From assembly GCA_031392125.1 (NCBI GenBank), contig JANMUX010000043.1, positions 1 through 52,155 of the forward strand: DNA of 52,155 nt, given 5' to 3'. The position numbers were made by a program, and so were the translations under genes. Below the pieces are notes generated by a model, which worked only from the letters and a program-made list of their open reading frames with translations, did not search any database and was not told where the DNA came from. Of this stretch, positions 7,237 to 48,423 are shown piece by piece (the first letter of the stretch is position 1; each line of letters opens with the position of its first letter). This DNA comes from Acidobacteriota bacterium (lineage in GTDB: Bacteria > Acidobacteriota > Vicinamibacteria > Vicinamibacterales > UBA2999).

Positions 7237-10200
7237 CTATTTTGGTTCGGTTCCCCACCAGAACTGCTTTGGCAACGGCTTCGCCGTCGGCCAAATCACA
7301 TTCAGCGTATCGGCTTCGTAGAGGTCGCCGTTCTTCATCACGTAGCGAATCGAGTTCGTGTTCTTGATGTTTTCAAGCGGGTTGCGATCGAGCACCAGCA
7401 GGTCTGCCAGTTTCCCCGGCTCGAGCGAGCCGAGATCCTGGTGCAGGGCGATGGCCTCGGCGCTGAACAGCGTGATGATCCGCAGCGTCTCGTGCGGCGT
7501 CAAGCCACCTGACGCCAGGTTCCAAGTTTCCCAATGGGCGCCCAGGCCCTGCAGCTGGCCATGGCTACCGAGTCCGGCCTTTCCGCCGGCGCGCACCACG
7601 TCGGTCACACCCTTGGCAATCAAGGTGTGGCCGTACTCCTCAGGCAGGAACCACTGCGGACGCCGCCGCACCATGCCGTCGAGCAGCTCCCACGGAATCC
7701 ACTTCTTCAGCTTCGCATCCTGCGCCGGGTTCTCGTTCTCGAACCAGTAGTTCTCGGACCACGGCGCGCCGTACGCCACCAGGATGGTTGGCGTGTAGAA
7801 CGTCTTGGTTCTTGCCACGAACGTCGTCACGTCCTTGTAGAGCGGCGCAATCGGCAGGCTGTGCTCCTGGCCGGAGTAGCCGTCGGCCATCTGGGTGAGG
7901 TTCAGCTTCAAGTCGAGCGAACCCTCGATGGTGGCGGTGATGCCGTACTCCTTGCATGCCTCAATGATCCATTGCCTGACGACGCGGTCGCCGGCGACGT
8001 ACTGTTTCAGCGTGTTGGTCCGGTACGCTTCCTTGTAGCGCTTGACAAAGCGGAACGCGGCGTCGCGGTCTTCGATGCCTGATCCGGCGAACACGCCGGG
8101 GCCGGTGGCGTAGACGCGCGGCCCGGGCATCATGCCGGCATCCACCATGTCGGCATATGCAAACACGTCAGGCGTCGAGGTCTGCGGATCCCTGGTCGTC
8201 GTGACGCCGTAGGCGAGGTTCGCGAGGAACTGCCACACCTCCGTTTGATGCAGGCCGCGCGGCGCCCACATGTGCGAGTGGGCATCGACGATGCCGGGCA
8301 TGATGGTTTTTCCGGCCACGCTGATCGTGCGCGTGCCGGCAGGAACCGAGAGCGAACCACGCCGGCCGACCGCGGCGACGCGATTGTCGGTGACCAGCAC
8401 GTCACCTTGCGGAATCACCTCGTCACCCTTCATCGTGATGACGCGCGCGCCGGTCAGCAGCACCGAGCCCTTGGGCTTGGAGCGCGGCAGTTCGACGACG
8501 ACGTCGGTCTTTTGCGGATCGTTGTCCGTAATCGGCTGGCGGAAAAACTGCGCGCCCCAGGCCCAGGTCACGGCGCTACCGTCTGCGGACCAGCGCAGAT
8601 AGTCGCCGCCCTCGAGCGACATTCGCGTGACCGGCACCGACGTGTTGTCGGCGCGGCCCTGGATGCGCACTTCGACCGTTTCGCGTCCGGTGCGTGGCAC
8701 GGTGACGAGGTAGTGCTTCTCCTGCAGGTTAACGAAGGCGCGGGTGCCGTCGGGCGAGAGGCGAATGTCTGACGCGGCCGGCGGATTGTTGCCCGGCCCG
8801 ACGCCGGTGATGCGGAGCAGCGTGCGCCGATCGTAGCCATCTATCGTGATCGACTGCAGGCCCCGGTTGGTCGTGAGGTAGACCCGCGACGAATCGTTGC
8901 GGGCGAAGTGAGGACCACGTCCGCTCTGCGCGGAACCCACCAGCGTCGAGGTGCCGCCGGCCGACGGCATCCACCGAATCTCGAGGGTGTTGGGCGGGCT
9001 GATGCCACCAATTTCGCGCGGCGCTTCTTCATCGCCTTCGCGCTCGTTTTCGGGCGGCGTGTCCATCAGGATCGAATAGAGCTGATCGGAGGCCGCGCCG
9101 GCCAGGAAGACCACTCGCGTGCCGTCGGGCGTGAAGGTCGGATCCAGGTAGTAGCCTTCGCTGCGAGTCAACGCTTCGGGCTGACCGCCGGCCGCCGCCA
9201 CCCGCTTGATCTGCCCGCCGGTCGTGGTCCAGGTGGTGTAGACGATCGAGCGGCCATCGGGCGACCAGGAAGGCATGAATTCACCCTCAGTGGTGCCTGT
9301 GCCAGGGGTGCTAGGGGTGCCTGGGGTGCCAGCCGTGCTCGTCAGCAGCCGGGGCGCGCCGGTCGGCATGTCCTTGATGTAGAGACGGTTCATCGCGCTG
9401 AACACCAACTTCGTGCCATCGGGCGAGATCGATGGCCAGCGAATCAGCCGCGCGCGAACGGCATCGCCGTCTTCGACGCGCGTTGGCGTGTAGACCCGAG
9501 GTGCGATTTCGGCCTGGACCTTTGCGGTGAACGGGATCGGTGTGGCCGCGCCGGTTTCAAAGTCGATGCGCTGCAGCTTGCCGGCAACCGGCACGATCAG
9601 CGACTTGCCGTCGGGCATGAAGTCATAACGGGGCAGCGTGTCGCGGCTGGCGCGCGATTCCTGGTCATCGCGCGTCACTGGATACGCGAGCCATCGCTCG
9701 GCGCCGGTTTCGAGGTTGCGCACGCGCAGGCCGGTCTGCGACTTGTGGCGGGTGCCGAACACCATCGACTTGCCATCGGGCGAAATCACCGGGCGAATGG
9801 CGCTGCCCTGGGCGTTGGTTACCTGCGTGACATCACCGGTTTCGCGATCGTGGCGGTAGACCTGCCACAGCGGGAAGCGCGCGTTGTAGGTGAAGCTGCC
9901 CGTCCGCTGCGTGTAGTAGATGAAGCGGCCATCGGGCGTCACCACCGCACCCATCTTGTTGGTGGGCGGCGCGGGCGGCGGCCCCTGCGCGTCAGGGCCG
10001 GGCTGGGGTGGCGGAGCAGGACCCACGCGCACACCGGTGCCGCCATCGCGGTGATACATGAACAGGCCGAACGTGCCGGGTTCGGGCGGACGCGACTTCG
10101 ATACGATGATGAACTGGCCGTCGGGCGTCCACGCCGGCGATGCCATGATCTGCGGCCGGTCGTTGGTCTTGCCGTCCTTGGTGACGGCGCGCGGATTGCC

Positions 10201-10578
10201 ACCGTCGGCGTTGGCAAGCCACAGGTTCTCCACGCCGCTGCGGTCGGTCAGGAAGGCAATGGCGCGGCCATCAGGAGACCACGTCGGCTGGCTTTCGAAT
10301 GACAGCCCGCCCATGATGCGGGTGGCCTCGCCGCCGGCAATCGGCATCGTGTAGAGGTCGCCTAGCAGATCGAACAGGATGGTGCGGCCGTCGGGCGAGA
10401 CGTCCACCTGCATCCACGTCACTTCATCGGTGGTGAACTCAATCGTCTCGGCCGTCTTCAGCGTGAAGCCCTCGCCGGGCTTGGCGGTGTCGTCGGCCTG
10501 GCGATCCTGCCCGCGCACGGTGGCGAACGCGATCATGCCAATGGCCAGCAGGGACGCAGACAAGGTTCTGATACGCAT
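7237..10578 (-). CDS. TolB-like beta-propeller (PD40 repeats) fused to a C-terminal amidohydrolase domain, secreted
   Basis: Signal peptide 'MRIRTLSASLLAIGMIAFATVRG'. Repeated 'SPDG(R/K)xIxF' PD40-type motifs in the N-terminal ~650 aa. C-terminal 'MPGIVDAHSHMW' metal-binding HxH motif of the amidohydrolase superfamily. Confidence 0.8.
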   Translation of the reverse strand: MRIRTLSASLLAIGMIAFATVRGQDRQADDTAKPGEGFTLKTAETIEFTTDEVTWMQVDVSPDGRTILFDLLGDLYTMPIAGGEATRIMGGLSFESQPTWSPDGRAIAFLTDRSGVENLWLANADGGNPRAVTKDGKTNDRPQIMASPAWTPDGQFIIVSKSRPPEPGTFGLFMYHRDGGTGVRVGPAPPPQPGPDAQGPPPAPPTNKMGAVVTPDGRFIYYTQRTGSFTYNARFPLWQVYRHDRETGDVTQVTNAQGSAIRPVISPDGKSMVFGTRHKSQTGLRVRNLETGAERWLAYPVTRDDQESRASRDTLPRYDFMPDGKSLIVPVAGKLQRIDFETGAATPIPFTAKVQAEIAPRVYTPTRVEDGDAVRARLIRWPSISPDGTKLVFSAMNRLYIKDMPTGAPRLLTSTAGTPGTPSTPGTGTTEGEFMPSWSPDGRSIVYTTWTTTGGQIKRVAAAGGQPEALTRSEGYYLDPTFTPDGTRVVFLAGAASDQLYSILMDTPPENEREGDEEAPREIGGISPPNTLEIRWMPSAGGTSTLVGSAQSGRGPHFARNDSSRVYLTTNRGLQSITIDGYDRRTLLRITGVGPGNNPPAASDIRLSPDGTRAFVNLQEKHYLVTVPRTGRETVEVRIQGRADNTSVPVTRMSLEGGDYLRWSADGSAVTWAWGAQFFRQPITDNDPQKTDVVVELPRSKPKGSVLLTGARVITMKGDEVIPQGDVLVTDNRVAAVGRRGSLSVPAGTRTISVAGKTIMPGIVDAHSHMWAPRGLHQTEVWQFLANLAYGVTTTRDPQTSTPDVFAYADMVDAGMMPGPRVYATGPGVFAGSGIEDRDAAFRFVKRYKEAYRTNTLKQYVAGDRVVRQWIIEACKEYGITATIEGSLDLKLNLTQMADGYSGQEHSLPIAPLYKDVTTFVARTKTFYTPTILVAYGAPWSENYWFENENPAQDAKLKKWIPWELLDGMVRRRPQWFLPEEYGHTLIAKGVTDVVRAGGKAGLGSHGQLQGLGAHWETWNLASGGLTPHETLRIITLFSAEAIALHQDLGSLEPGKLADLLVLDRNPLENIKNTNSIRYVMKNGDLYEADTLNVIWPTAKPLPKQFWWGTEPK
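9292..9342. repeat. 9-bp periodic GGTGCC-type repeat inside a CDS
   Basis: Units GGTGCCTGT (9292), GGTGCTAGG (9307), GGTGCCTGG (9316), GGTGCCAGC (9325), CGTGCTCGT (9334). On the minus strand they encode the linker 'TSTAGTPGTPSTPGTGTT'. Confidence 0.7.
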
Positions 10579-10601: not shown

Positions 10602-13070
10602 ATGCGAATCCTCAAGGCATTGGCCCTCGCGATGACCGGGGCCGCGTGTTTCGTCATCAGTGTCGCCGCGGTAACGCGAGTGCCGTCTGGCGACGGTCAG
10701 TTCTGGGACATCCAGGACACCTCGCCGTGGTCGCAGGATAGTGGCGGCATCGCCACCGGCGGGCGCGCCAACCCGTTCAACGGGTTTGGCTATCTCAAGC
10801 TGCAGGTACGGCGTGCCGACAGCACGCTGCTCGTGAGCAATCAGCACCTGCGCGGGTTTGGATTGCACCACGATGGCGCCGGACGCTTCGACTCGATCAC
10901 GCCGGTGCTGCAGGAGGGCATCCTGGTGTCGCGCGGCATCACGACCGCGAAGGACTCGCCCTACCTACGATACTTCGACACCTTCACCAACACCTCCGCC
11001 GAGGATCGCACCGTGCGGGTGGCCTGGGGAGGAGCAGTGGGTGCCGTCGACGATGGCGGGCGCGTGACGGTGGCGGCGACCTCGAGCGGCGATCGGCAAA
11101 TCGACATGGCCGACAGCTTCGTGACGATGATGCAGAACGCGAAGGGTAACGCTAATCCTCCCGATGGACCATCGGGGCATGGGCCTTCCGCGCATGTGCT
11201 GGGGACGCGCCGCGGGCCGCTCACGTCAGTGGGCGACATGTATGGCGACCCGTTCGACGGCACCTGGCCGGGCTTTGACACCTCGCACATCGGGTACGTG
11301 TTTACGCTGCGGCTGCGGCCTGGGCAAACCTCGGCGCTCGTCACCTTTGTCGTGAAGGGGTTGAGCGAGGTCTACGATCCGCGAGGCGGGTATCCCATTC
11401 CGTTCAAGGACACCCTGGTGACGGGCGAGGCCGTCTACTCTGGACCGGACGCCAGGGTCCCGGCAGCCGGGTCGGAGATCGCCCGGGTCACGAACGTGGC
11501 GAAGCAACTCGTGTCGGCCCCCGACCTACGTGGGCTGACGGCCCTGCAGCGGTCGCAGATCGTCAACTGGACTACCAACACGCCTGCGCCGCCGGCCTTC
11601 ACCGTGTTCGAGAAGACGGTGATCGAACTGCAGGACGCCATGACTCGCGGCTTGGTCACAGCCGAGGACATCGCCAAGGAGTACTTGGCTCGCCTTTCGC
11701 GATACGACCGGAACGGGCCGACGTTCCGCTCGGTGCTGTCGCTCAACCCACGAGCGGTTGCCGATGCGCGCGCAAGGGATGCCGAGCGGGCGGCGGGCCG
11801 CGTGCGCAGCCCGTTCCACGGCGTGCCCGTGGTGTTCAAGGACAACATCGATGCGACCGAGTTGCCGAGTACCGGCGGCTCGCTCGCGCTACTCGATCAT
11901 CGCCCGCGCCTCGACTCGCGCGTGGCGGCCGGCATGAAGCAGGGCGGTGCGGTCGTGCTCGGCAAGGCCAACCTCGACGAGTTTCCGTTCGGGGATTTCG
12001 GCATCAGCTCGGTTGGCGGCACGGTCGGGAATGCCTATGACCCTTCACTGAGCACCTCGGGTTCAAGCGGCGGCAGTGCGACTGCGGTAGCGGCGAGCCT
12101 GGCCGCGTTGGGTTTCGGCACCGACACTTGTAACTCGCTTTCGAATCCCGCTGCCTTTGCATCGCTCGCAACCATTCGCACGACGCGGGGGCTCACCAGC
12201 CGCGCGGGCGTTATGCCGCTCAACACTTTCAATGACGCAGTAGGTCCGATGGCGAAGACGGTGCGCGATGTCGCGTTGGCGCTCGATCTCGTGACCGGCG
12301 CGGACCCGGAGGATCCAGTCACCGCGAACGCGGCGTCGCATATCGCAGGCTCATTTGCGCAGGGGTTGGACGCTGCGACGCTGACCGGCAAGCGCATCGG
12401 CGTCTTGCGCCAGCGTTTTGTCGGCTTCACCGGCGAGCGCGAGGTCGCGGCCAACATGGAGCGCGTCATCAAGGAACTTCAGTCGGCCGGCGCCATCGTG
12501 GTGGACGTCGCCATCGCCGACTACGACGCGAAGTATGCGGCGGCCCGCGGCGCGGCGCCCGGCTCGTTGCGGGATGGCTGGGCCGCATACCTGTCGCGAG
12601 GCGCGAAGGCCGGGGACAAGGTGCTGACCATTCAGGACCTTCTGGCGTCAGGAAAACTCGCGCCCGTGAGCGCGCGCCGCTTCGAGGGCGCGTTGGCGCC
12701 GGTGCCCGCTGGCGCCGCGCTTGAAGAAGCTACCCGTCTGTTCTTTAGCGGTCGAGAAACCTTCCGACAGATTTTCGTAACGTTGCTGGACCAGCAGAAA
12801 CTCGACGCCCTGCTTTATCCCGCCAACCAAGCGCGTCCGCACACCCATGAAGGCGGCCTCGAACGCTACGGATCGGAACCTGGCACTTGCGAAGAGAGCG
12901 CGGCGACCGGCCTGCCGCAGGTGACCGTGCCGGCCGGCTTCATCGCCGGGCGCTATCCCGTGGGCATCTCGCTATTGGGAAGAATGTGGGACGACAAGCG
13001 ATTGCTGGAGCTAGCGGCCGCTTATGAACGGGCGACGCACCATCGCCGTCCGCCAACGACCGTGCAGTAG
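10602..13070 (+). CDS. amidase-signature (AS) family amidase with ~330-aa N-terminal domain of unknown function, secreted
   Basis: 'GVPVVFKDNIDA' and 'GGSSGGSATAVAASLAALGFGTDT' are the amidase-signature Lys and Ser-cisSer region. Hydrophobic N-terminus 'MRILKALALAMTGAACFVISVAAV'. Confidence 0.8.
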   Translation: MRILKALALAMTGAACFVISVAAVTRVPSGDGQFWDIQDTSPWSQDSGGIATGGRANPFNGFGYLKLQVRRADSTLLVSNQHLRGFGLHHDGAGRFDSITPVLQEGILVSRGITTAKDSPYLRYFDTFTNTSAEDRTVRVAWGGAVGAVDDGGRVTVAATSSGDRQIDMADSFVTMMQNAKGNANPPDGPSGHGPSAHVLGTRRGPLTSVGDMYGDPFDGTWPGFDTSHIGYVFTLRLRPGQTSALVTFVVKGLSEVYDPRGGYPIPFKDTLVTGEAVYSGPDARVPAAGSEIARVTNVAKQLVSAPDLRGLTALQRSQIVNWTTNTPAPPAFTVFEKTVIELQDAMTRGLVTAEDIAKEYLARLSRYDRNGPTFRSVLSLNPRAVADARARDAERAAGRVRSPFHGVPVVFKDNIDATELPSTGGSLALLDHRPRLDSRVAAGMKQGGAVVLGKANLDEFPFGDFGISSVGGTVGNAYDPSLSTSGSSGGSATAVAASLAALGFGTDTCNSLSNPAAFASLATIRTTRGLTSRAGVMPLNTFNDAVGPMAKTVRDVALALDLVTGADPEDPVTANAASHIAGSFAQGLDAATLTGKRIGVLRQRFVGFTGEREVAANMERVIKELQSAGAIVVDVAIADYDAKYAAARGAAPGSLRDGWAAYLSRGAKAGDKVLTIQDLLASGKLAPVSARRFEGALAPVPAGAALEEATRLFFSGRETFRQIFVTLLDQQKLDALLYPANQARPHTHEGGLERYGSEPGTCEESAATGLPQVTVPAGFIAGRYPVGISLLGRMWDDKRLLELAAAYERATHHRRPPTTVQ

Positions 13071-13086: not shown

Positions 13087-13941
13087 CTAGTACAAAACAG
13101 CGCGCTCGCCGAGATCGGCAATCAGCTTCTTGAAGTGCGCGACGATGATGTCGCGCCGCTTCATGACCGCCTCGATCTCAGGACCGGTGAGCTGATCCTC
13201 GACGGCCTTCTTCACACCATCTTTCGTCAGGGCCTCCAGGCGGGGCAGTAGCGCCCGGTCGATCTTGCCGAGGTCCTTGCCGTAGACCAGTTCGGTCTGC
13301 AGCCGGAAGGCGCGGCTGAAGTCGATCATCATCACCTTCCAATCAGGCGTGATCAGCACGTTGCCGAGATTGCGATCGGTATCGCGGGCGAGCGCCGCAA
13401 ATACGCGCATGCGATACATCTGGTGGTTCCAGGTGGTCGCGTTGGGCGGCTCGATCTTCTTCTTCAACCGTTCGCCCTCGTCCATGAGGGTATCGACCCA
13501 CCAGCTGAGCGATCCGTTCTTGCCGTTCCAGCGGCGTTCAACGTGCACCGGCATCATGTGGCCGAGGCCCAGCAGTTCCGCCAGCGCATAGGCGGCCAGG
13601 TTGTAGCGGTAGGCATCGACGAAGTTCATCTCGACGGCAGCCGAACGTCCCCCGCCGTTGAGGTTGGCGACCGTCTGCCGTTCGTCGACCGCCTGGAACG
13701 CGGCATCGTGCGTGAGCGTGCCGTTGGTCAGCGTGAGGCGCTTGGGACTGGTGACACCCTTGCTGGTGTCTCGCGACCGAATGATCTTCGCGGTTAACAG
13801 GAAGTCGCGCATCTCGGCGCGCGTGAGGGCCGCGGGCGCCGCAGCGGGCGCCGCAGCCGGCGCCGGCTGCGCGAGAGAAGGACGGCAAACGAGTAGCGAA
13901 AGCCCGACGAGGACGACGACGCGAAGGCCGGCCCGGTTCAT
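13087..13941 (-). CDS. secreted hypothetical protein with PI3/PI4-kinase-like catalytic motifs
   Basis: Signal peptide 'MNRAGLRVVVLVGLSLLVCRPSLAQ'. 'YRYNLAAYALAELLGLGHMMPVHV', 'ARDTDRNLGNVLI' (DRxxxN catalytic-loop-like) and 'VMMIDFSRAF' (DFG/IDxG-like) resemble the type-II PI4K/PI3_PI4-kinase fold as I recall it. Confidence 0.45.
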   Translation of the reverse strand: MNRAGLRVVVLVGLSLLVCRPSLAQPAPAAAPAAAPAALTRAEMRDFLLTAKIIRSRDTSKGVTSPKRLTLTNGTLTHDAAFQAVDERQTVANLNGGGRSAAVEMNFVDAYRYNLAAYALAELLGLGHMMPVHVERRWNGKNGSLSWWVDTLMDEGERLKKKIEPPNATTWNHQMYRMRVFAALARDTDRNLGNVLITPDWKVMMIDFSRAFRLQTELVYGKDLGKIDRALLPRLEALTKDGVKKAVEDQLTGPEIEAVMKRRDIIVAHFKKLIADLGERAVLY

Positions 13942-13947
13942 GGGTGG

Positions 13948-14811
13948 CTACTTGTATATCTTGGTGAAGTTGATTGACGCGCCGCCCACTTGCGGCTGGA
14001 CGCCCATGTTGAACTTGCTGCCGCCAAGGTTCATCGTCACCGTCCGCGCGGAAGCGATGCCGAGGCCAGCGCCCATCACCACGTCGGTGGCATGGTGGCG
14101 ATTCCAGGCCATGCGGGCCAGGGCGACATACGACCCGAATGCGTAGGCCGGCACTGCAGCCTTCCAGCCGTAATGACGCTGCAGCACGGTGGCGGTGGCG
14201 AACGCGCTGGCCGAGTGGCCGGATGGGAACGACATGTTATTGCTGGCGTCGGGACGCGGACGCCGCACCGTGACCTTGACGCTCTGCACGATTACCTGCG
14301 ACAGAATCTGGGCGCGCACGACATCGCGCCCGACCATCGAGAGCTTCTCGTTGCGAACCAACTTCCCGAACCCGTAACCCGCAAAGCCAGCGCCCGCCTG
14401 GAAGGCGAAGCTGCCCATGATGTTGCCCGATTCGAACAAGGTGGTCGGAATGTTGAAGCCGTTGTTCACGCCTTCCCGATCCCACGGCGCGGCGGCAATG
14501 GCGCCGATCGACGTAAACGCCAACACGCGGACCGTGTCGTGGCTGAAGAAGTGCTTGAAGTCGCCGCCGACGAGCTTGAAGAAGCCGCCTGACTGCACGT
14601 CGCTGGTCGCAGGCGCAATCATGCCGGCCGGCAGGGGCTGACCGGGACGCGGGAACTGCCCCGCGTTCGCTGCCTCGCTGTCCGGGCCGGACGTCGGTTC
14701 GGCAGTCGCTTCGGTGCGCGAGGATTCGGCCGGCGCCGGTTCCTGGGCCCAGGCTGGAGCGGCCAGCGTCAGGGCGGCAACAAACAGGGCGGCAGCACGT
14801 GGCGTATTCAT
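13948..14811 (-). CDS. PAP2-family (acid phosphatase/lipid phosphate phosphatase) protein
   Basis: The three PAP2 motifs are readable: 'KVTVRRPRP', 'PSGHSA' and 'ARMAWNRHHATDV'. ATG at 14811 gives signal peptide 'MNTPRAAALFVAALTLAAPAWAQ'. Confidence 0.8.
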   Translation of the reverse strand: MNTPRAAALFVAALTLAAPAWAQEPAPAESSRTEATAEPTSGPDSEAANAGQFPRPGQPLPAGMIAPATSDVQSGGFFKLVGGDFKHFFSHDTVRVLAFTSIGAIAAAPWDREGVNNGFNIPTTLFESGNIMGSFAFQAGAGFAGYGFGKLVRNEKLSMVGRDVVRAQILSQVIVQSVKVTVRRPRPDASNNMSFPSGHSASAFATATVLQRHYGWKAAVPAYAFGSYVALARMAWNRHHATDVVMGAGLGIASARTVTMNLGGSKFNMGVQPQVGGASINFTKIYK

Positions 14812-14916
14812 CAAGAAAGCCTTCGGTTGAGAGGTCAAAACGGTCCGCAAGTATCGCACGGAATTTACAAGGGCCGGCTCAGTTGGCCCCCTATAGCTAT
14901 CGGCAGGCGGCCGCCC

Positions 14917-16551
14917 TCAGGGTAGTCGCTCGAGCCCAACCAGGGTCCAACCGCTGGAATCTCTCCGAAAATAGACAGAAATGGGCTTATTCCACGCTTC
15001 CGGACCGCCGACCGTGGAGATGTCCACCTTGATGAACTCGGAAGCCGGCAGGGCCGGCATGGGCAGGGGGCTCTGGGTTTCCTCGGTGGTGGCCACGAGC
15101 GTGGCCTTGTCGGCCACGTTGTCGAATGTGTACCAGAGAGCCCGGTAGCCTGGCGCGCGATCGGCGACTGCGGCGTCGACGGCGATGTTGCGGAAGGTCA
15201 GCCGCCCGTCGGTGATCGCGACATCCACCAGCGGGTTCACCTTAGGCAGGAAGGTCTGAAGAACTCGCAGGCGGCGGTCGGCGATCGCCTTGGCGAGAAA
15301 GGCCTCCGCTTCCGGGTCGCCAAACTTTCCCTCGGCGACCGCGGCCTTGATCATCCCGTCGTCGATTGCCGCCAGCTTGGTGGCCGCCCAGAAGGTGTCG
15401 TCGGCGCGCATGTGCCTGAAGGCCGCGTTGGTGATGTGCGGCCACCACGTCTCCGGGTCCCAATCCGAGTGGTCGCGCGGCAACCGGCCGATCGCGGGAG
15501 ATTCGAAGTAATCCTGCGTGCGCCAGCGCGGGATCTTGAATCCCAACGACAACACACGCCCGAAGATATCTCCTGGCTGTTCGACCAGCGCTTCGTAGCC
15601 TTCCCAGCCTTCGCGCGGGCCAATTGACGCACTGCCGAGTGCCGACGAGAAGTCGAGCAGGTAGTGGCGAATGAAGCTGCGCCCGTTCTCCGTCACCAGC
15701 GACGACAGCGAATTGATGCCCTTGGCATCAACGTGGTTCAGCCACGCCGCAAACACGAAGTAGCCGCGCAGCTCGCGGCGATGCTCGTGCGGCACGATGT
15801 CGTTCGGGTCGTCCGCGCGCGTACCGTGAAAGGCGATGCGTCCGACCGGACGGCCGGGGGTGGCCTTACTGAGGATCACGCGATAGCTGCCGTCGGCATC
15901 GCGGTCGGCCCGCGATAGCAGCGACGCGATATCGCCCTGCTGCATCGACCGTGCGACCTCGCCGGGCGGCGTAATCCGCGTGTCCTTGCCGATTGTCAGG
16001 TTCGCCGGCTTCAATTGGCCGATGTAGTACTCGGTGGTGTGATAGCCGGCCGCCCAGAACAGCTTCGCCGCCACGACCTCGCTGCCGCTGCCCATGGCGC
16101 GCCAGCCAGGAGGATCGAACTTCACGAACCACGTTTGTCCCGCGGTGTCGCGGATGGTGAAGCCCGGCGACACGCCGTCGCTCTTGGCCGAGACCACGGT
16201 CCAGGCGCCGGGTGCGGGACCGTCGGTGGTGTTCGCCGCGCGCGCCACCCGTGCGGGCGTCAGCGCCATGCGGCCGGCGCGGTTGACGAAGAACGGCCCA
16301 TCGGGCACTTCGTCCAGCGTGTTGATGTTCTTGGCCCGCTGGCCAATTTCTCGGTCGCCCGGGCGCCAGAACAGGTTCTCGATGGTCTGGTACGCCAGGT
16401 CGGGCTCGTAGCGATTGGCGTTCTTCACGTCTTGCGTCACCGGCTCGCGCCAGATCGGATCGTCGGGAAAGAAGCGGCGCGACTGCGCGCTCACGGTCCA
16501 GGTGAGTGCCGCAATGGCCAGGAGCGTCAGGACGATGCGTGTGCGAGTCAT
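14917..16551 (-). CDS. secreted hypothetical protein with protein-kinase-like fold motifs
   Basis: Signal peptide 'MTRTRIVLTLLAIAALTWTVSAQ'. 'QTWFVKFDPPG...SEVVAAKLFWAAGYHT' (beta3-Lys/alphaC-Glu-like), 'FAAWLNHVDAKGINSL' (HxDxxxxN-like) and 'HYLLDFSSALGS' (DFG-like). Only 1 nt separates it from the upstream Omp85 gene. Confidence 0.45.
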   Translation of the reverse strand: MTRTRIVLTLLAIAALTWTVSAQSRRFFPDDPIWREPVTQDVKNANRYEPDLAYQTIENLFWRPGDREIGQRAKNINTLDEVPDGPFFVNRAGRMALTPARVARAANTTDGPAPGAWTVVSAKSDGVSPGFTIRDTAGQTWFVKFDPPGWRAMGSGSEVVAAKLFWAAGYHTTEYYIGQLKPANLTIGKDTRITPPGEVARSMQQGDIASLLSRADRDADGSYRVILSKATPGRPVGRIAFHGTRADDPNDIVPHEHRRELRGYFVFAAWLNHVDAKGINSLSSLVTENGRSFIRHYLLDFSSALGSASIGPREGWEGYEALVEQPGDIFGRVLSLGFKIPRWRTQDYFESPAIGRLPRDHSDWDPETWWPHITNAAFRHMRADDTFWAATKLAAIDDGMIKAAVAEGKFGDPEAEAFLAKAIADRRLRVLQTFLPKVNPLVDVAITDGRLTFRNIAVDAAVADRAPGYRALWYTFDNVADKATLVATTEETQSPLPMPALPASEFIKVDISTVGGPEAWNKPISVYFRRDSSGWTLVGLERLP

Positions 16552-16552
16552 A

Positions 16553-17725
16553 CTAAAAAATCTGGCTACCGGCGACGATCAGGCCCATGCCTTCGCGGCC
16601 GCGCGCGACTTCGACGCGCAGCGCCGTGAACAACGGACCGTGAAAGCGGGCACCAAGGCCCCAGCTGGTCTCAAAGTCACGCGTCTGGAATTGCTTGCGG
16701 TCCGACGCCACCTGTCCAGCGTCCAGGAACAAGGCCATGTCGATGTAGCGCGACGGCCGCCAGCGATACTCGCCGGTCAACAGCACGCGGTTGCGATCGG
16801 TGAACCGCCGCGTCGCGAAGCCCCGTAACGTGCTGCCGCTGCCAAGGTAGGGCGACAGCATGACCGGCACGCTGGCGCCCGGCTCGGTGCTGGTGAGCGT
16901 CACGAGGCCGCGCGCGGCCAGCACGAACTGCTCACGCACGAGCGGCACCAGCTGCACCACCTCGAATTCCTGCAGGTCGAACGAGTTGGGGTTGCTGTTG
17001 GTCTCGTTGTGCCGCTCCCACGTGGCGCGATAGAAGCCCCCCCTGGTGCTGTAGCCCGGCGAGCTGCGCCAGTCGATGGCGACACCGCCGCGAGTCACGT
17101 TGTAGCGCAAGTCGTCACCAAGCCCTGGGCCCGCGTCCGACAGGGTGCCCCGGGCCTCGCTGGCGGTCTCGATGTTGACGAATGAGTAGCCGCTGCTGAA
17201 CGACAGCCACTTGGCCGGCTTGAAGGCGGCGTTGAACGTCAGATCGGTAGGCTGATAGTCATATCGCAGGCGAGAGCTCTTGTCGGAGGCGGGTCCAAGG
17301 CCATAAAACGACACGCCTCGGGCGTTAAGCCAGCTTCCGCTCGCATCCACGCGCAGCCTGCCACGCCACAACCCAGGCGCCGCCAGCTTGGTCTCGAACA
17401 GTACCGAATTGTTCAGCGAGATGCCGCCCATCACATTGAAAGACGCCGCCTTCTGCAGACGCTTCAGGTAGCCGGCGCCGACCGCCATACCCGAGCCGCC
17501 GAACACGCTGCCAAACCACGGGTAGATGCCGTCGCCGCCGCTGAGCAGCGGCGAGATCAGGATGCGACGGATGACCAGCTCCGCATCCGACGGCCCCTCT
17601 TCTGCCAGCCTCTTTGCCTTCTCAGCTTGCTGCTCGGCAATCGCGCCTTCGCGCGTGGCCTGTGCGAATGAGGGCACGCTGACGAGAAGGGCTAGCAGGA
17701 AGGCGGTGAGCCGAAACATCGGCAT
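16553..17725 (-). CDS. Omp85/BamA-family outer-membrane beta-barrel without POTRA domains
   Basis: Signal peptide 'MPMFRLTAFLLALLVSVPSFAQ'. Alternating beta-strand pattern, 'LGSGSTLRGFATRRF' (Omp85 loop-6 RGF-type motif) and a C-terminal aromatic residue ('...AGSQIF'). Confidence 0.7.
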   Translation of the reverse strand: MPMFRLTAFLLALLVSVPSFAQATREGAIAEQQAEKAKRLAEEGPSDAELVIRRILISPLLSGGDGIYPWFGSVFGGSGMAVGAGYLKRLQKAASFNVMGGISLNNSVLFETKLAAPGLWRGRLRVDASGSWLNARGVSFYGLGPASDKSSRLRYDYQPTDLTFNAAFKPAKWLSFSSGYSFVNIETASEARGTLSDAGPGLGDDLRYNVTRGGVAIDWRSSPGYSTRGGFYRATWERHNETNSNPNSFDLQEFEVVQLVPLVREQFVLAARGLVTLTSTEPGASVPVMLSPYLGSGSTLRGFATRRFTDRNRVLLTGEYRWRPSRYIDMALFLDAGQVASDRKQFQTRDFETSWGLGARFHGPLFTALRVEVARGREGMGLIVAGSQIF

Positions 17726-17743: not shown

Positions 17744-18553
17744 CTAAAGGCGTTCGAGCTGCCATTTCGTGCGGGTATAGGCGATGCGGAAGCCGTTTCG
17801 CTCCGCATTTCTCTGCGACGCACTACCAGGTGCGGCGCACATCATGGCCAGCTGGCACCCTTCCTCTGCCAGGCGCTTGAGCCGCCACTCGAGCAGCGCC
17901 GACTGCGCGCCTTGCCGCCGCCCCTCCGGCACCGTGCTCGCCCCAGCCAGCAGGCCGACGCCATTCGACATGAACAGGGCCGCAGTTGCGATGGCCCGGT
18001 CGTCGATCTCCGCGATGATGCAGGTGGCGTATTCCACGCTGATGCGCGCGAACCCCTCGATGAACGACTGAACGTCGGCAGATTCGCTCCAGCCGCGGGC
18101 CGACACCGACGCAAATAACCCCGCCTCTTCAGGCGTCACCACGCGCACGCGAATTCTCGAGTTCACCTCGCGCGCATCGGCCTTGGCGCCGATCGACCTG
18201 AACATGACACTCGATAGCTCGACGGGCCGGTAGCCACGCGCGGCGAGGGTGGCCAACGCCTCAACGCCGGCGAGCGGGCTGACCTCGTGAATCACGGCGG
18301 AGCCGCGCGACGTGAAGAACGCTTCCATGGCATCGAGGTCGGCATCGGTGAGCGTGGTCGCAACCCCGAGACCGAACGTCTGGGTGAGCGGCGAGCCAAC
18401 GCCGGAAAACATCGCCAGCGTGCCGCCGAACTGCTGCCACGTGGCGCACGAGGCTGGCTCGCGCCGGCCCTGGATCTCTACGAACGCCGCATTACCGCGT
18501 CCTTCGGTCAGCTCGAGCCGTCGCGAGAGTTCGCGATCGCTGAACACAGTCAC
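17744..18553 (-). CDS. GNAT-family N-acetyltransferase
   Basis: C-terminal half 'VPEGRRQGAQSALLEWRLKRLAEEGCQLAMM...SQRNAERNGFRIAYTR' fits the GNAT motif A (R/Q-x-x-G-x-G/A) and motif B region. Confidence 0.65.
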   Translation of the reverse strand: MTVFSDRELSRRLELTEGRGNAAFVEIQGRREPASCATWQQFGGTLAMFSGVGSPLTQTFGLGVATTLTDADLDAMEAFFTSRGSAVIHEVSPLAGVEALATLAARGYRPVELSSVMFRSIGAKADAREVNSRIRVRVVTPEEAGLFASVSARGWSESADVQSFIEGFARISVEYATCIIAEIDDRAIATAALFMSNGVGLLAGASTVPEGRRQGAQSALLEWRLKRLAEEGCQLAMMCAAPGSASQRNAERNGFRIAYTRTKWQLERL

Positions 18554-19809
18554 CGCAGCGCCTGGTAGACCAGGTTCGGAAACGCCTCCCGAATGTCGGT
18601 GCCGTTGGGAATGAGCTGGATCATCAGCAGCATGACCAGCTTCTCTTCCGGATCGATCCGGTAGACCGAACCATACGCACCGCCCCAGCCGAATGCACCT
18701 TCGCTCTGCATGCCGTTGGCGCCAAAGCGATCGGTGGTCTCGAAACCAAGACCGAAACCCAGGCCGTTAGTGGAGTGCAGCGTGCCGACTTGGTTGGTCG
18801 CCATCAACCGCACACTACGCGGCGACAGCAGACGAACTCCGTCAAGGGAACCACCAAGCCGAATCGCCTCCAGGAACCGCGCATAGTCGCGAGCGGTGGA
18901 CAGCAGGCCAGCGCCGCCGGCGAAGTTTTTCCGCGGACCGTCGGCGTAGTGGCCCTGGCCGCGTGCGCCATCAGGCGCGCGTTCGTAGGCGCCATCCTTG
19001 GCCGCATAGACCGCGGCCAGTCGCAAGCGGTCTGCGGGTGGCAGGAAAAACTGGGTGTCCTTCATGCCGAGCGGCGCGATGATGCGCGTGCGCAGATAGT
19101 CATCGAGCGGCATGCCCGATACCTTCTCGACGATGCAGCCCAGAATGTCGGTGTTGTAACCGTAGACCCATTTCTCGCCGGGCTGAGCGACGAACGGCAG
19201 CGTCCCCAGCCGTTCCATCGTGGCGCACACCGGCTCGTCTTTGTCGGCGGTGTACCAGCCAAAGCCAGCGGCGGGCCCGAGGCCCTTTGCCGCATACAGC
19301 TCTGAGACGACCGCATCGGTGCCGTAGGAAATGCCGGCGGTATGGGTTAGCAGGTCGCGAATCGTAATCGGCCGTCGCGCGGGCTCGGTAACGACGCCGG
19401 TGGTCATCTTCGCCGTGGCGACGGTGGTCTTGGCAAAGGTCGGAATGAAGTCGCCAGCGCGCCGGCCGAGCGAGAGGCGGCCCTCTTCGATCAGCTGCAT
19501 GATCGCGACGCTCGTCAGCGCCTTGGTCTGCGATGCAATGCGGAAGATCGTGTCGGTCGTCATGCGGCGCCCGGCTTCGCGGTCGCTCCAGCCGAAGGCC
19601 TTCTCGTAAATGGGCTTACCGTCCTGCATCACCAGCGCCACGATTCCGGGGACGCGGTTGTCGTCCACGAAACGTTGCAGGCCACTGTCGATGACGGCGA
19701 CCCGGTCGGCAGCGAGGCCGGCAGGCCTGGTTTGCAGTGACGGCGATGCCGGCAACAGCACGAGCGCGGCCAGCACGGCCGCAATTCCGATTCGCATTCT
19801 CATCATCAC
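18550..19809 (-). CDS. beta-lactamase-fold serine hydrolase (class C/DD-peptidase-like), secreted
   Basis: 'FRIASQTKALTSVAIMQL' contains the SxxK motif. 'YGYN' fits the YxN-type motif. N-terminal signal peptide. 4-nt overlap with the downstream GNAT gene. Confidence 0.75.
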   Translation of the reverse strand: MMMRMRIGIAAVLAALVLLPASPSLQTRPAGLAADRVAVIDSGLQRFVDDNRVPGIVALVMQDGKPIYEKAFGWSDREAGRRMTTDTIFRIASQTKALTSVAIMQLIEEGRLSLGRRAGDFIPTFAKTTVATAKMTTGVVTEPARRPITIRDLLTHTAGISYGTDAVVSELYAAKGLGPAAGFGWYTADKDEPVCATMERLGTLPFVAQPGEKWVYGYNTDILGCIVEKVSGMPLDDYLRTRIIAPLGMKDTQFFLPPADRLRLAAVYAAKDGAYERAPDGARGQGHYADGPRKNFAGGAGLLSTARDYARFLEAIRLGGSLDGVRLLSPRSVRLMATNQVGTLHSTNGLGFGLGFETTDRFGANGMQSEGAFGWGGAYGSVYRIDPEEKLVMLLMIQLIPNGTDIREAFPNLVYQALR

Positions 19810-19835: not shown

Positions 19836-20834
19836 CTAGGGCAGCCGCAACATTCCGGCGGTCGCGCATTCCTCCGCGACCTTGAGATAGCGAAGCACGC
19901 TGTCAGTGCCGATCACGTACGGGTGCGGGTCACCCGGCTTACGGGCAGCCATCGCCGGGAGCTTGGTTTTCGAGCCATCGAAGATGGTGTGGTTGGCGAT
20001 CAGCACGTCGGCGCCGGCCTTGGCGGCGATGTCGCGGAAGCGCCGCGCGGAATCGATGTAGACCTGGAAGCGCTCTTTCGAGTGAGGGAAGTTGAAGGCC
20101 GTGCCGCCCCACGCCGCGGCCACGTGTCTCGTGCCGCGATCGAACACGGGCACGATCGTCGACACGGTTCCCATGGTGTGCCCGGGCGTGATGTAGAAAG
20201 TGAGCGTTTGATCGCCAACCGTGAGCACCTGCCCGTCGGTCACGACCATGTCGCGTTTCGGCTTCGAGGGATCGCGAGTGTTCTTCTCGAGCATGTCCCA
20301 GTCGGCTGCCGACAACAGGACGCGGGTCTTGAATGAATCCTGCAGGTATTGCGCGCCGCCGGAGTGATCGCGATGCCCATGGCTGACGAGCGCGTATTTG
20401 ATCGTTGTGGGATCGAGCCCGAGCTTTTTCAGCCCGCCGACGATCTGGCTGTCAACGGAGTACTCGAAGATCGTGTCGAGAACGACGATGCCGTCTTTCG
20501 TGGCGACAGCCCAGGCTGAATATTCTTTCTCGCCGACGAAGTAGAGGTTGTCGAACACCTTGACGGGGTCAGCCTCCCACGTCGATTTGGCCGGCGGACC
20601 CGGCGGTCGGGGCGCAGCGGCCGCCGATGGCGTGGCGGCCGGGGCCGCAGGTCGCGCCGGTTCAGGTTGGCACAGGCGATTGAACAGGCCGATGTGGTCC
20701 TGGCCCGCAGCCGCGCGAGCGGCGGCCACGTGCGCAGCCACGGTTCCTGCCGGCGCCTGTGCGGTGAGAGTGAACCCGCCGAGTCCCCAGGCCAGTGCGG
20801 TTGCCGCCAAGAATCCCGTTGTGATTGTCGTCAT
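19836..20834 (-). CDS. MBL-fold metallo-hydrolase, secreted
   Basis: 'YALVSHGHRDHSGGAQYL' is the HxHxDH metallo-beta-lactamase motif. Signal peptide 'MTTITTGFLAATALAWGLGGFTLTAQA'. Confidence 0.75.
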   Translation of the reverse strand: MTTITTGFLAATALAWGLGGFTLTAQAPAGTVAAHVAAARAAAGQDHIGLFNRLCQPEPARPAAPAATPSAAAAPRPPGPPAKSTWEADPVKVFDNLYFVGEKEYSAWAVATKDGIVVLDTIFEYSVDSQIVGGLKKLGLDPTTIKYALVSHGHRDHSGGAQYLQDSFKTRVLLSAADWDMLEKNTRDPSKPKRDMVVTDGQVLTVGDQTLTFYITPGHTMGTVSTIVPVFDRGTRHVAAAWGGTAFNFPHSKERFQVYIDSARRFRDIAAKAGADVLIANHTIFDGSKTKLPAMAARKPGDPHPYVIGTDSVLRYLKVAEECATAGMLRLP

Positions 20835-47147: not shown

Positions 47148-47234
47148 TTTTATAAACCCTTAATCCTCATAGACTTACGTGAGCTTACCAGGTCGTTACA
47201 GGACCGGATCGTCCATGAAATGGGGCAAAAGCCA

Positions 47235-47263
47235 TTGAGCGGGCGCGAGCGGGATTATAGAAT
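47235..47263 (+). promoter_or_regulatory. near-consensus sigma70-type promoter for the DGQHR gene
   Basis: TTGAGC (47235-47240), 17-nt spacer, TAGAAT (47258-47263), 24 nt upstream of the ATG at 47287. It lies in an AT-richer intergenic region. Confidence 0.4.
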
Positions 47264-47286
47264 CTGACCTCTTTGGACGGACTCAT

Positions 47287-48423
47287 ATGATCAGCGTAGC
47301 CGCTATCCGGATGCAGCAGTTCGGCGTGCAATTCTATCAGGCCTCTCTCACGGCCAGTGATATCGACAAGCTCGTGCGTTTCGAGGTGTTGAGCTACCAG
47401 GACCAGGGGCAAGCGGGCGTTCGCGGAAAGAAGAAAGCCGCCCAGTCCAAGATCAACTGGGACCTGCTCGAGCGGCGAATCGCCTCGAACGAGAAGGCGT
47501 ACCAGCGACAGATCATCCGCAAGAAGATTGATGAACTGGTCCAGTATTACGAACAGTGCCGACAGGCCCGCGACCTGCCATCAATTCCTGGCGCGGTGAT
47601 CATTTCCTGTGATGAGAAGCTGAGCTTCGAGGCGGTGGAGAGCGGCTCATCCGTGGGCCGCTTGAAGGTCCCCGAACGTGAAGGCATCCTGCGCGCTATC
47701 GACGGCCAGCACCGGTTGCTTGCCCTGCACGCCGACATCGATCGGTTTGGCGACGAGCCCTTCACGGTGCCCGCGATCATTTTCGACCGCGTGCCCGAAG
47801 ATCACATCGTGCAGATGTTCGTCACCATCAATGCGAAGCACACTCGCCTGAACGCGTCGCACCTGGTCTCGTTGTCGGGACGCCAGCTCTATCGCGACGA
47901 ATCGCTGGCGGCAGCGCACGACGTCGTGCGCGCATTGAATGACCGCGATGAATCGCCACTGTTTGGCGAGATCAAGCTGCTCGGCGTCGGCAAGGGCCGC
48001 GTCGGCCAGGCGCCGCTCGCGCAGGAACTCAAGAAGCTGTTCTCGGATGAGGCGGCACTGGGTGGCGCCCGCAAGAGCGCGGAGTTCCGTGAGGAGTCGA
48101 AGAAGTTCTTCGTCAATTACCTCAAGCAGATCGCCAGCATTTTCGAATCGGCATGGAACGGCCGGAAGTACAGCATCAAGTCGGCCACCGCCTTGCGCGC
48201 ATTCATCCGCGTGGCCCCTGATGTGATCCAGAAGATCGACCAGCTGCACGCGGACCGCACTGACTTCCGCGCCATTGGCCGCGTGATTTCGCCGTGGGGC
48301 CGCCGCATCGGCGCGCTGCGCTTCGAAACCGACGGTGCCTGGAAGCGCCAGGGGACGACGGTCGACAATCTCACCAAGGAACTGCGCCTGGCGCTGCAGT
48401 ACCCCGAAGGTGCGGCCGGTTAA
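47287..48423 (+). CDS. DGQHR-domain protein (DndB-like, ParB/Srx-fold superfamily)
   Basis: Literal 'AIDGQHRLLAL' motif followed by 'QMFVTINAKHTRL'. The N-terminal 'FYQASLTASDI' and the length (378 aa) fit DndB/DpdB-type DGQHR proteins. Confidence 0.75.
   Translation: MISVAAIRMQQFGVQFYQASLTASDIDKLVRFEVLSYQDQGQAGVRGKKKAAQSKINWDLLERRIASNEKAYQRQIIRKKIDELVQYYEQCRQARDLPSIPGAVIISCDEKLSFEAVESGSSVGRLKVPEREGILRAIDGQHRLLALHADIDRFGDEPFTVPAIIFDRVPEDHIVQMFVTINAKHTRLNASHLVSLSGRQLYRDESLAAAHDVVRALNDRDESPLFGEIKLLGVGKGRVGQAPLAQELKKLFSDEAALGGARKSAEFREESKKFFVNYLKQIASIFESAWNGRKYSIKSATALRAFIRVAPDVIQKIDQLHADRTDFRAIGRVISPWGRRIGALRFETDGAWKRQGTTVDNLTKELRLALQYPEGAAG

Follow-up and report, generated by a model that had tools for sequence, protein, structure and literature searches.

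ATP-dependent phosphorylation is generally thought to be absent from the Gram-negative periplasm. What proteins with a kinase-like fold could be doing there is the question raised by a locus of an Acidobacteriota bacterium of the order Vicinamibacterales. The locus lies in a 52,155-nucleotide (nt) stretch of contig JANMUX010000043.1 (assembly GCA_031392125.1), the whole of which is referred to here as the window. Four co-directional open reading frames (ORFs) on its minus strand (16553-17725, 14917-16551, 13948-14859 and 13087-13941) encode a barrel of the Omp85 family, a protein of 544 amino acids (aa) named u544 here, a phosphatase of the PAP2 superfamily and a 284-aa protein named u284. A sequence-only reading of the locus had taken these genes for one envelope-targeted module. 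The comparison with related loci showed that the conserved unit is made up of two genes, Omp85 and u544, and that the four genes are not one conserved operon.

The intergenic gaps across the four-gene run are 1 nt (TAG-T-ATG), 105 nt and 6 nt. The GC content at third codon positions (GC3) is 0.82-0.84 for the four genes, and the minus-strand frames are therefore preferred to the overlapping opposite-strand ORFs. Each of the four N-termini combines a basic n-region with a hydrophobic core and ends in xAQ (SFA/Q, VSA/Q, AWA/Q and SLA/Q, the slash marking the cleavage site), so that by their sequences all four proteins look exported. The ORF coordinates and the N-termini thus agree with the gene order, spacing and signal peptides that had been read from the sequence.

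The Omp85 and u544 genes form a conserved pair

The comparison covered 92 loci, of which 80 were obtained by scanning GTDB with one genome for each species (u544 homologues of 35-90% identity); the others were the more distant representatives L081-L091 (28-35% identity to u544) and the window itself. Neighbouring genes were counted by family-specific tblastn over these loci. The scan was based on two u544 peptide patterns, which leaves divergent members under-sampled, and nearly all of the homologues come from metagenome-assembled genomes (MAGs), some with evidently wrong taxonomic labels. Loci L012, L015, L018, L020, L024, L028 and L063 carry u544 homologues that are 51-79% identical to the window's protein, in the same synteny; their labels, Alphaproteobacteria, Cyanobacteriota, Bifidobacteriaceae or Fibrobacteraceae, probably reflect mis-binning or mislabelling of the MAGs.

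The Omp85 gene was located directly upstream of u544, in the same direction, in 88 of the 92 loci; in the remaining four, the locus is truncated by the end of a contig. At the junction the start and stop codons frequently overlap or are separated by 1-2 nt, and the barrel and u544 may be translationally coupled. The pair was seen in Vicinamibacterales, Bryobacteraceae (L085), Omnitrophota (L083, assigned from neighbouring proteins of at least 90% identity), KSB1/Caldithrix (L090) and Marinimicrobia (L091). Two MAGs of Luteitalea sp. (L034 and L036) are among its carriers. The pairwise identities of Omp85 and u544 are correlated across 63 loci (Pearson 0.90). The pair is present two or three times in some genomes (L016/L045/L078; L008/L079; L011/L057), and the partners in these copies have diverged together (51%/29% and 49%/30%), a pattern that fits an ancient duplication of both genes at once.

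The linkage of Omp85 and u544 is the part of the proposed four-gene module that stood; the rest did not. In 40 of the 92 loci, a co-directional PAP2 gene is the direct downstream neighbour of u544, with one inversion (L040). The u284 gene was found in 17, all within the window's own clade and always after PAP2; it is missing from sister loci (L002, L014, L016 and L068) or truncated (L005), and is a lineage-specific accessory gene. It could be asked whether all four genes are neighbours by chance or local history and share no function beyond the envelope. The confinement of u284 to one clade and the 52 loci without PAP2 would agree with this, as would the promoter and terminator scan of 12.8-21.2 kb, in which the counts were at shuffle level and no clear operon boundary or informative pattern was found. 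For the Omp85-u544 pair, however, such an explanation is untenable given its occurrence in 88 of 92 loci and in five named lineages, its overlapping codons and its co-divergence. The PAP2 gene, where present, also keeps its direction and position except in L040, with u284 always behind it. Chance adjacency is reasonable for u284, and as an account of the whole locus we consider it extremely improbable. Synteny was therefore found in other genomes, as the sequence-only reading would have it, but the conserved unit is the two genes.

The u544 protein is predicted to adopt a kinase-like fold

The u544 protein (~58 kDa) gave no family above threshold in Pfam or NCBIfam and no match in the PDB by single-sequence or profile search. 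An NCBIfam scan of 87 diverse homologues (28-90% identity) also returned no family; the alignment of these homologues served as input for structure prediction and for the residue counts given below. An exhaustive representative search recovered 3449 clusters at 50% identity (E<=1e-3), every named member of which is annotated as 'hypothetical protein'. Thus u544 founds a large unnamed family with no Pfam or NCBIfam model. As in the sequence-only reading, neither the 544-aa nor the 284-aa protein could be placed in a family, Pfam yielding none above threshold for either. Weak matches to Pfam HipA_2 were obtained for 11 of the 87 homologues (best E 7.9e-4), while the window's u544 matched neither HipA model (PF07804 and PF20613). 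Pfam gave no match to the Fam20 family (PF06702) for u544 or u284; the likeness to Fam20 described below is structural only.

The AlphaFold2 (AF2) model of u544 (predicted local distance difference test, pLDDT, 94.5; predicted template-modelling score, pTM, 0.93) consists of an N-terminal extension, a kinase-like core (~aa 115-330) and a C-terminal β-sandwich (aa 441-544). Of the 50 best PDB matches by Foldseek, almost all are protein-kinase-like, among them CtkA, Fam20C, ERK2, Rio2, hydra Fam20 and PI4KII, and the leading kinase matches have a probability of 0.95-1.0. The best match is CtkA (3akj_A, E 6.4e-4, probability 1.0, template-modelling (TM) score 0.49 on the target) and the second best is Fam20C (E 7e-4), the two lying at a probability of 0.98-1.0. 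The whole-chain TM score on the query is low (0.27-0.31) because extra domains flank the kinase core. A bilobal protein-kinase-like fold is supported by the models for u544 and for u284, and in this sense the kinase likeness suspected from motifs in both proteins was borne out as a prediction.

In the u544 model, K144 (candidate β3 lysine) sits on strand 140-145 and E158 (candidate αC glutamate) in helix 153-168. NHVDAKGIN follows an αE-like helix and LDFS follows two short strands, giving a canonical order, as assigned from the secondary structure of the model rather than by superposition. Among the 87 homologues, the active-site positions are retained at K144 in 78, E/D158 in 77, D275 in 77, K/R277 in 69 and N280 in 81, and the DFG region at D300 in 85, F301 in 75 and Gly302 in 71. 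The family consensus is K / E / HxDx[K/R]xxN / DFG and, judged from the alignment and the model, the kinase-type active site of the family is complete. The catalytic Asp and Asn and the DF[G/S] singled out in the sequence-only reading are conserved in homologues down to ~28% identity.

Conservation is not limited to these motifs. Positions G169, D248, D251, H255, R259, R262, G306, D385, W388 and R426 are invariant in all 87 homologues, and the most conserved stretch is the DDPND..HEHRRELR block, a candidate anionic-substrate- or metal-binding site. At the mature N-terminus, F27, D30, D31 and P32 are at least 97% conserved (71 homologues), and a motif of the RRFFPDDPI type recurs in Bryobacteraceae and other distant members. 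An N-terminal hydrophobic signal is present in 84 of the 87 homologues, and distant members were also seen to have signals. A lipobox-like motif was seen in 25 of them (~29%; e.g. P0294, P0301, P0365, P0373, P0387; L081:5001-6629), and on this motif part of the family is probably lipid-anchored.

Some family members are considerably longer. P0313 (969 aa; L089:7001-9910) and P0272 (1158 aa) have related C-terminal extensions of 420-600 aa that give no Pfam match. The extensions of the long members P0272, P0313, P0288, P0375, P0383 and P0268 gave no Pfam match and are unlike Omp85, PAP2, u284 and the NTT transporters described below. In P0371 (826 aa), an Omp85 fragment (~aa 200-320 of the window barrel) is joined to a u544 domain, which may be a real fusion or an artefact of frameshift, assembly or gene calling.

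The partner of u544 is an Omp85 barrel without POTRA domains

The Omp85 protein of the window matched PF01103 at 40.7 bits (cut-off 24; E 2.7e-10; aa 134-374) and no POTRA domain was matched in it by Pfam, which confirms the POTRA-less barrel of the sequence-only reading. The periplasmic N-terminal segment is ~45 aa long, and the predicted cleavage site (after aa 21) is separated by ~60 residues from the first conserved residues of the barrel. The NCBIfam models Omp85_fam, BamA and TamA gave weak scores in the C-terminal half, and no Pfam match to DUF5982 was reported. The Arg and Gly of loop 6 and the Asp of FxDxG are conserved (71 homologues). With a PF01103 score above the gathering score, no POTRA, and loop 6, FxDxG and an aromatic C-terminus in place, the barrel belongs to the 'noNterm' Omp85s, whose function is unknown in the literature (PMC4104836, PMC11358297).

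An Omp85 gene and a cognate exported partner in one operon is also the layout of TpsB and TpsA in two-partner secretion (TPS). The barrel could accordingly be imagined to translocate u544, or to flip its lipoprotein versions, with the kinase acting on the surface or, as an effector or toxin, in another cell with the ATP of its target. The RRFFPDDPI motif stands at the mature N-terminus, where the TpsA secretion signal sits, and the lipoprotein-like N-termini of 25 of the 87 u544 members and the absence of Cys from all four mature proteins of the window would suit such a route. CtkA, the closest structural match, is described as a secreted Helicobacter pylori kinase in its PDB title, and transport or lipoprotein flipping has been raised as a possible role of the noNterm Omp85s of Leptospira (PMC11358297). 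However, the extracellular dome of these barrels argues against a secretion pore (PMC11358297), and POTRA and TPS domains are both lacking. The genes are inherited vertically, much like single-copy genes, and in a housekeeping setting (for example rpsP-trmD-rplS-rnhB in L083 and L084), and neither an immunity-like gene nor a polymorphic C-terminus is present. We hold export of this kind to be unlikely, though it deserves to be taken seriously.

The missing POTRA domains can be read in another way, namely that u544 replaces them. The pair would then serve to assemble outer-membrane proteins or lipoproteins, and the kinase fold would be a scaffold or a nucleotide-sensing switch. Membrane-protein biogenesis is a role that noNterm Omp85s may have (Heinz & Lithgow, PMC4104836). 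The coupling of the two genes is strictly one-to-one and they co-diverge, some lipoprotein-like members recall BamA-lipoprotein complexes, Fam20A is a kinase fold that serves as a pseudo-enzyme, and strictly invariant residues of u544 lie outside the kinase motifs. On the other hand, the five lineages have retained the whole K / E / HxDx[K/R]xxN / DFG set, whereas pure scaffolds usually lose such sets, and we regard a non-catalytic u544 as quite improbable.

The PAP2 phosphatase and u284

A PAP2 enzyme between the two kinase-like proteins, as claimed earlier, was confirmed by PF01569 (46.2 bits; cut-off 27.2) and by the KxxxxxxRP and PSGH motifs together with a third motif, ARMAWNRHHATD, in which Ala replaces the usual Ser. 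The ORF (13948-14859) would encode 303 aa from a GTG; the ATG at 14811, giving a 287-aa product that starts MNTPRAA, was chosen because homologues start at the same place, with a signal peptide. This cleavable signal (aa 1-22) is followed by a ~60-aa linker rich in Pro, Ala and Glu. The helices are moderately hydrophobic (Kyte-Doolittle 0.9-1.3, with no 19-residue window reaching 1.4), and the enzyme may be soluble, peripheral or weakly embedded in a membrane.

Among proteins of solved structure, those nearest to it in sequence are LpxE 6ebu (E=0.003) and phospholipid phosphatase 2. Among the NCBIfam equivalogs, LpxE NF007159 scored 22.5 bits against a cut-off of 177 and SepP 15.6 against 250, and no LpxT model match was listed. 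Given these low scores, the cleavable signal and the lack of a clear transmembrane segment, where an integral inner-membrane enzyme with six helices would be expected, membership of LpxT or LpxE was rejected. The analogy with LpxT and undecaprenyl diphosphate (Und-PP) drawn in the sequence-only reading finds no support in a protein with such a signal, linker and weak hydrophobicity.

The AF2 model of u284 has a pLDDT of 78.8 and a pTM of 0.74. Foldseek returned Fam20A and Fam20C first (4e-8 to 1e-6; TM 0.55-0.62), then Vps34/PI3K, PI4K and CtkA, the matches to Vps34 and PI4K having an E of ~1e-5. The catalytic loop of PI3K and PI4K is DRHxxN; the DRNxxN loop of u284 resembles it, and IDFS follows at the expected spacing. 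The PI4K-type-II-like motif that had been noticed in this protein, AAYALAELLGLGHMMP, is present at aa 116-131. Sub-threshold matches to hidden Markov models were obtained for TIGR03843 (2e-6), PI3_PI4_kinase (0.26) and KdkA (0.076). Their scores leave u284 outside these families: PF00454 gave 11.6 bits against 27.1 (E=0.26), with DRNxxN and DFS in place of DRHxxN and DFG, and TIGR03843 (SCO1664 family) gave 27.3 bits against 172.4 over the C-lobe only (aa 170-268). Single-sequence and profile searches of the PDB yielded chance-level matches only.

No core shared by u544 and u284 was found by BLASTP and hhalign. A weak hhalign match links aa 393-441 of u544 to aa 235-277 of u284, in the C-terminal helices (L..LT.d.ik.aV ... 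RRD.i..hf; E 0.0096, probability 4%), and may be due to chance or be left over from a shared ancestor.

Phosphatases and transporters at related loci

Phosphatases of three unrelated folds adjoin the pair, namely PAP2, PTP/DSP and metallophosphatase. A PTP/DSP gene (Y_phosphatase2) is located beside the pair in L051, L076, L083 and L084, and a metallophosphatase gene just downstream of u544 in L041, L078 and L091; in L024, L086 and L089 one is found nearby. The neighbour phosphatases that were inspected carry signal peptides. The phosphatase slot looks like a case of non-homologous replacement, as expected for a kinase with a cognate phosphatase. Three unrelated folds point to phosphate chemistry and speak against a purely structural role of u544.

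A gene for an MFS transporter of the NTT/TLC family was found beside the pair in 37 of the 92 loci (Pfam TLC 39.6-61 bits; gathering score 21). It lies directly upstream of Omp85 in ~25 Vicinamibacterales loci (L030-L077, ~-1300 relative to u544) and directly downstream of u544 in L076, L078, L081, L084 and L088, and a further one occurs at L086. Many of these loci also carry an NTT-HEAT gene, a small gene for a cyclic-nucleotide-monophosphate (cNMP)-binding protein (L082, L086 and L087) and a membrane Ser/Thr kinase. According to Major et al. 2017 (PMC5381601), NTT-HEAT(-cNBD) proteins are uncharacterised and widely distributed among free-living bacteria. The recurrence of NTT-like inner-membrane transporters and exported phosphatases would be hard to explain if u544 were an exported effector.

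The sequence-only reading had pointed to the difficulty of a kinase in an ATP-poor periplasm. The NTT/TLC genes offer a possible answer at related loci, but not in the 52-kb window, where tblastn detected no homologue of NTT/TLC, cNMP-binding, PTP or metallophosphatase genes. In one MAG, a clade-type locus (L016) coexists with a paralogous pair (L078) that is accompanied by an NTT-like gene and a metallophosphatase, so that such genomes may have the transporter at another site.

Two further neighbours were observed. A 945-aa protein with CarboxypepD_reg and OMP beta-barrel domains, resembling a TonB-dependent receptor, follows the module in 9-11 Vicinamibacterales loci (L030-L033, L039, L046, L052, L064, L069 and L073). 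In two distant loci (L088:4601-5248 and L091:1552-2220), a gene for a VTT/DedA-family membrane protein stands upstream of the pair and may be a coincidence or a lipid-related link.

Such neighbourhoods could also belong to a system for scavenging organophosphates or nucleotides, in which the phosphatases free phosphate, NTT-like and TonB-dependent-type transporters import nucleotides, and u544 and u284 bind or process them. PAP2, PTP/DSP, metallophosphatase and a 5'-nucleotidase-like gene in these neighbourhoods, the CarboxypepD_reg/OMP-barrel protein in 9-11 loci and the fact that characterised NTT transporters are importers (PMC5381601) are compatible with it. However, Omp85 barrels are not known to conduct nutrients, phosphate-starvation genes such as pst or pho are missing from every annotated context, and an intact kinase active site would have no obvious role. 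Scavenging is thus a very improbable function for the locus.

Proposed mechanism

The explanation we put forward, with slightly less than even confidence, is an extracytoplasmic kinase/phosphatase module in which u544 would be a catalytically active, kinase-type enzyme that works together with a dedicated POTRA-less barrel at the outer membrane. The cognate Omp85 barrel would form a complex with u544 and either keep it at the outer membrane or pass it on to that membrane. There u544 would use a nucleotide triphosphate to phosphorylate an envelope component, which might be a glycolipid or glycan head-group, a lipid or an outer-membrane protein. The adjacent exported phosphatase, PAP2 in this case, would remove the phosphate and so complete a kinase/phosphatase cycle outside the cytoplasm. 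In the window's clade, u284 may be a second, small Fam20/PI3K-like kinase-fold protein that was added after PAP2 and is dispensable in sister lineages. At related loci, the NTT/TLC transporter of the inner membrane, which resembles ATP/ADP exchangers, might supply periplasmic ATP; in the window, which lacks it, another part of the genome would have to provide the donor, or the donor would not be ATP.

The fullest form of this mechanism is an ATP-fuelled envelope phospho-cycle, in which NTT/TLC proteins (with HEAT and cNMP-binding partners) would export ATP, the Omp85-docked u544 kinase would spend it and the phosphatases would reverse its action. By analogy, it would be a bacterial counterpart of the eukaryotic secretory-pathway kinases. 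We find this extended form doubtful, if worth weighing.

Several observations weigh against an active kinase cycle. A fold and a set of motifs are no proof of kinase activity, and the pseudokinase Fam20A is among the best structural matches. The window's u544 has DFS where the family consensus is DFG. The strictly invariant residues D248, D251, H255, R259, R262, D385, W388 and R426 lie outside the classical kinase motifs, which leaves room for a chemistry other than simple phosphotransfer. More than half of the loci lack PAP2. The NTT-like proteins score 36-61 bits against a TIGR00769 cut-off of 387 and are distant from the characterised NTP/NDP exchangers. The NTT/TLC gene occurs in no locus of the window's clade and not in the window, so that the ATP-supply step is missing here. 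Finally, the signal peptides were judged by eye and from hydropathy.

Features and surroundings of the locus

The features of the four genes are listed in Table 1; every motif quoted in the sequence-only reading was located at its exact coordinates.

Table 1. Coordinates of the four genes and of their mapped features in the window.
Feature	Coordinates (nt)	Strand	Basis
POTRA-less ('noNterm') Omp85-family outer-membrane barrel, 390 aa	16553..17725	-	Pfam PF01103, motifs
Omp85 signal peptide, aa 1-21	17663-17725	-	n-region/hydropathy
Omp85 loop-6 LRGF, aa 300-303	16817-16828	-	motif mapping
Omp85 FLDAG, aa 333-337	16715-16729	-	motif mapping
Omp85 C-terminal ...GSQIF β-signal, final Phe	16556-16570	-	motif mapping
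u544, predicted Sec-exported, 544 aa	14917..16551	-	AF2, Foldseek, homologue alignment
u544 signal peptide, aa 1-22 (...TVSA/Q)	16486..16551	-	hydropathy peak
u544 conserved mature N-terminus RRFFPDDPI	16453-16479	-	homologue alignment
u544 N-lobe: FVKFD aa 142-146 (candidate β3 K144), SEVVAAKL aa 157-164 (candidate αC E158)	16060..16128	-	
u544 DDPNDxxPHEHRRELR, aa 247-262, directly before αE helix	15766..15813	-	homologue alignment
u544 NHVDAKGIN aa 272-280 (HxDxKxxN, as eukaryotic-type kinases) and DFG-like LDFSSALG aa 299-306	15634..15738	-	
Exported PAP2-superfamily phosphatase, 287 aa from ATG at 14811	13948..14811	-	Pfam PF01569
PAP2 KVTVRRPRP, aa 179-187	14251-14277	-	motif mapping
PAP2 PSGH, aa 196-199	14215-14226	-	motif mapping
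PAP2 third motif ARMAWNRHHATD, aa 232-243	14083-14118	-	motif mapping
u284, predicted exported, 284 aa, signal peptide aa 1-24	13087..13941	-	AF2, Foldseek
u284 αC-like helix AAYALAELL, within motif AAYALAELLGLGHMMP, aa 116-131	13549-13596	-	
u284 catalytic-loop-like DTDRNLGN, aa 187-194	13360-13383	-	
u284 IDFSRAF, aa 206-212	13306-13326	-	

Upstream of Omp85, Pfam identified three co-directional genes, all on the minus strand: an MBL-fold gene (19836-20834), a serine β-lactamase-family hydrolase gene (18550-19809) and a GNAT acetyltransferase gene (17744-18553). The GNAT gene overlaps the β-lactamase-family gene by 4 nt and is 18 nt from the Omp85 gene, and the three genes may, in the window's clade only, share a transcript with Omp85. 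The synteny of the GNAT and β-lactamase-family genes is limited to the window's close relatives, and the three genes are outside the conserved module.

On the other side of the locus, a 1113-aa exported PD40/TolB-like β-propeller fused to an amidohydrolase is encoded at 7237-10578 (minus strand). An 822-aa amidase with a ~350-aa N-terminal extension is encoded at 10602-13070 (plus strand), convergent with u284. Both are syntenic in close relatives. Scans of the window for tRNA genes and Rfam families were empty, and the PADLOC component models for anti-phage defence matched none of the four proteins. The GC content dips to 0.587 at 46001-48000, as compared with ~0.65 in the rest of the window.

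Significance

A literature search on Omp85 with kinase-like partners, periplasmic kinases and ATP export found no description of the module or of the 544-aa family. The kinase-fold partner, its association with a barrel lacking POTRA and the recurrent link to NTT-like and exported-phosphatase genes are not described in the literature found. The family is large and unnamed, with ~3,400 clusters spanning Acidobacteriota, Omnitrophota, KSB1/Calditrichota and Marinimicrobia. As an exported family with an apparently intact kinase site is found beside ATP/ADP-translocase-like and phosphatase genes, the assumption that the periplasm is free of phosphorylation becomes directly testable. If the proposed mechanism is true, it would provide a partner and possible first functions for the noNterm Omp85 and NTT-HEAT families and reveal an unrecognised ATP-fuelled phospho-cycle in diderm envelopes of five or more phyla. 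The claim for the window is more modest: it has the core pair, PAP2 and a clade-specific second kinase-fold gene, without the transporter.

Comparison with known systems

The noNterm Omp85s (Heinz & Lithgow 2014, PMC4104836; Leptospira LIC12252/12254/12258, PMC11358297) share with the window barrel a short periplasmic N-terminus, an (L/M)RG(W/Y/F) loop 6, FxDxG and a C-terminal aromatic residue. The Leptospira paralogues have DUF1566 and Big-domain lipoproteins as neighbours (PMC11358297), whereas the window barrel is obligatorily paired with a kinase-fold gene.

Two-partner secretion (TpsB/TpsA) and type Vd PlpD are alike in having a barrel of the Omp85 superfamily side by side with an exported partner and a conserved motif after the signal peptide. 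TpsB, however, has two POTRA domains and PlpD one, while the window barrel has none, and u544 would be a compact globular enzyme without a TPS domain rather than a β-helix. Pfam gave no POTRA, ShlB or TPS-domain match in Omp85 or u544, which places the pair outside TPS proper.

In comparison with CtkA (H. pylori JHP0940), described as a secreted kinase, and with HipA-like proteins, u544 is ~270 residues longer and has an N-terminal extension, a C-terminal β-sandwich, a Sec signal and, always, an Omp85 partner. The PAP2 of the window shares its signature motifs with LpxE, LpxF, LpxT, PgpB and PhoN, and is set apart by a cleavable signal, a long linker and weakly hydrophobic helices.

The related loci match the NTT-HEAT(-cNBD) architecture as given in passages of PMC5381601, with TLC/MFS proteins with or without a C-terminal HEAT domain and small cNMP-binding genes, none of which is in the window. 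Those passages make no link between NTT proteins and a pair of Omp85 and a kinase-like protein.

The Fam20A/B/C proteins have signal peptides and a structural likeness in common with u544 and u284, at no sequence-level relationship. The mature u284 is ~260 aa long against ~400 aa for Fam20, and the bacterial envelope is a different setting. The Fam20 kinases of the secretory pathway act in a non-cytosolic compartment to which ATP has to be imported, and u544 and u284 would likewise do so.

Taken part by part, the proteins of the window come from known superfamilies (Omp85, protein-kinase-like and PAP2) and fall outside HipA, Fam20, PI3/4K, LpxE/LpxT and TpsB by every membership test made; in its layout, the locus resembles, by analogy, two-partner secretion and the modules of BamA or TamA with their partners.

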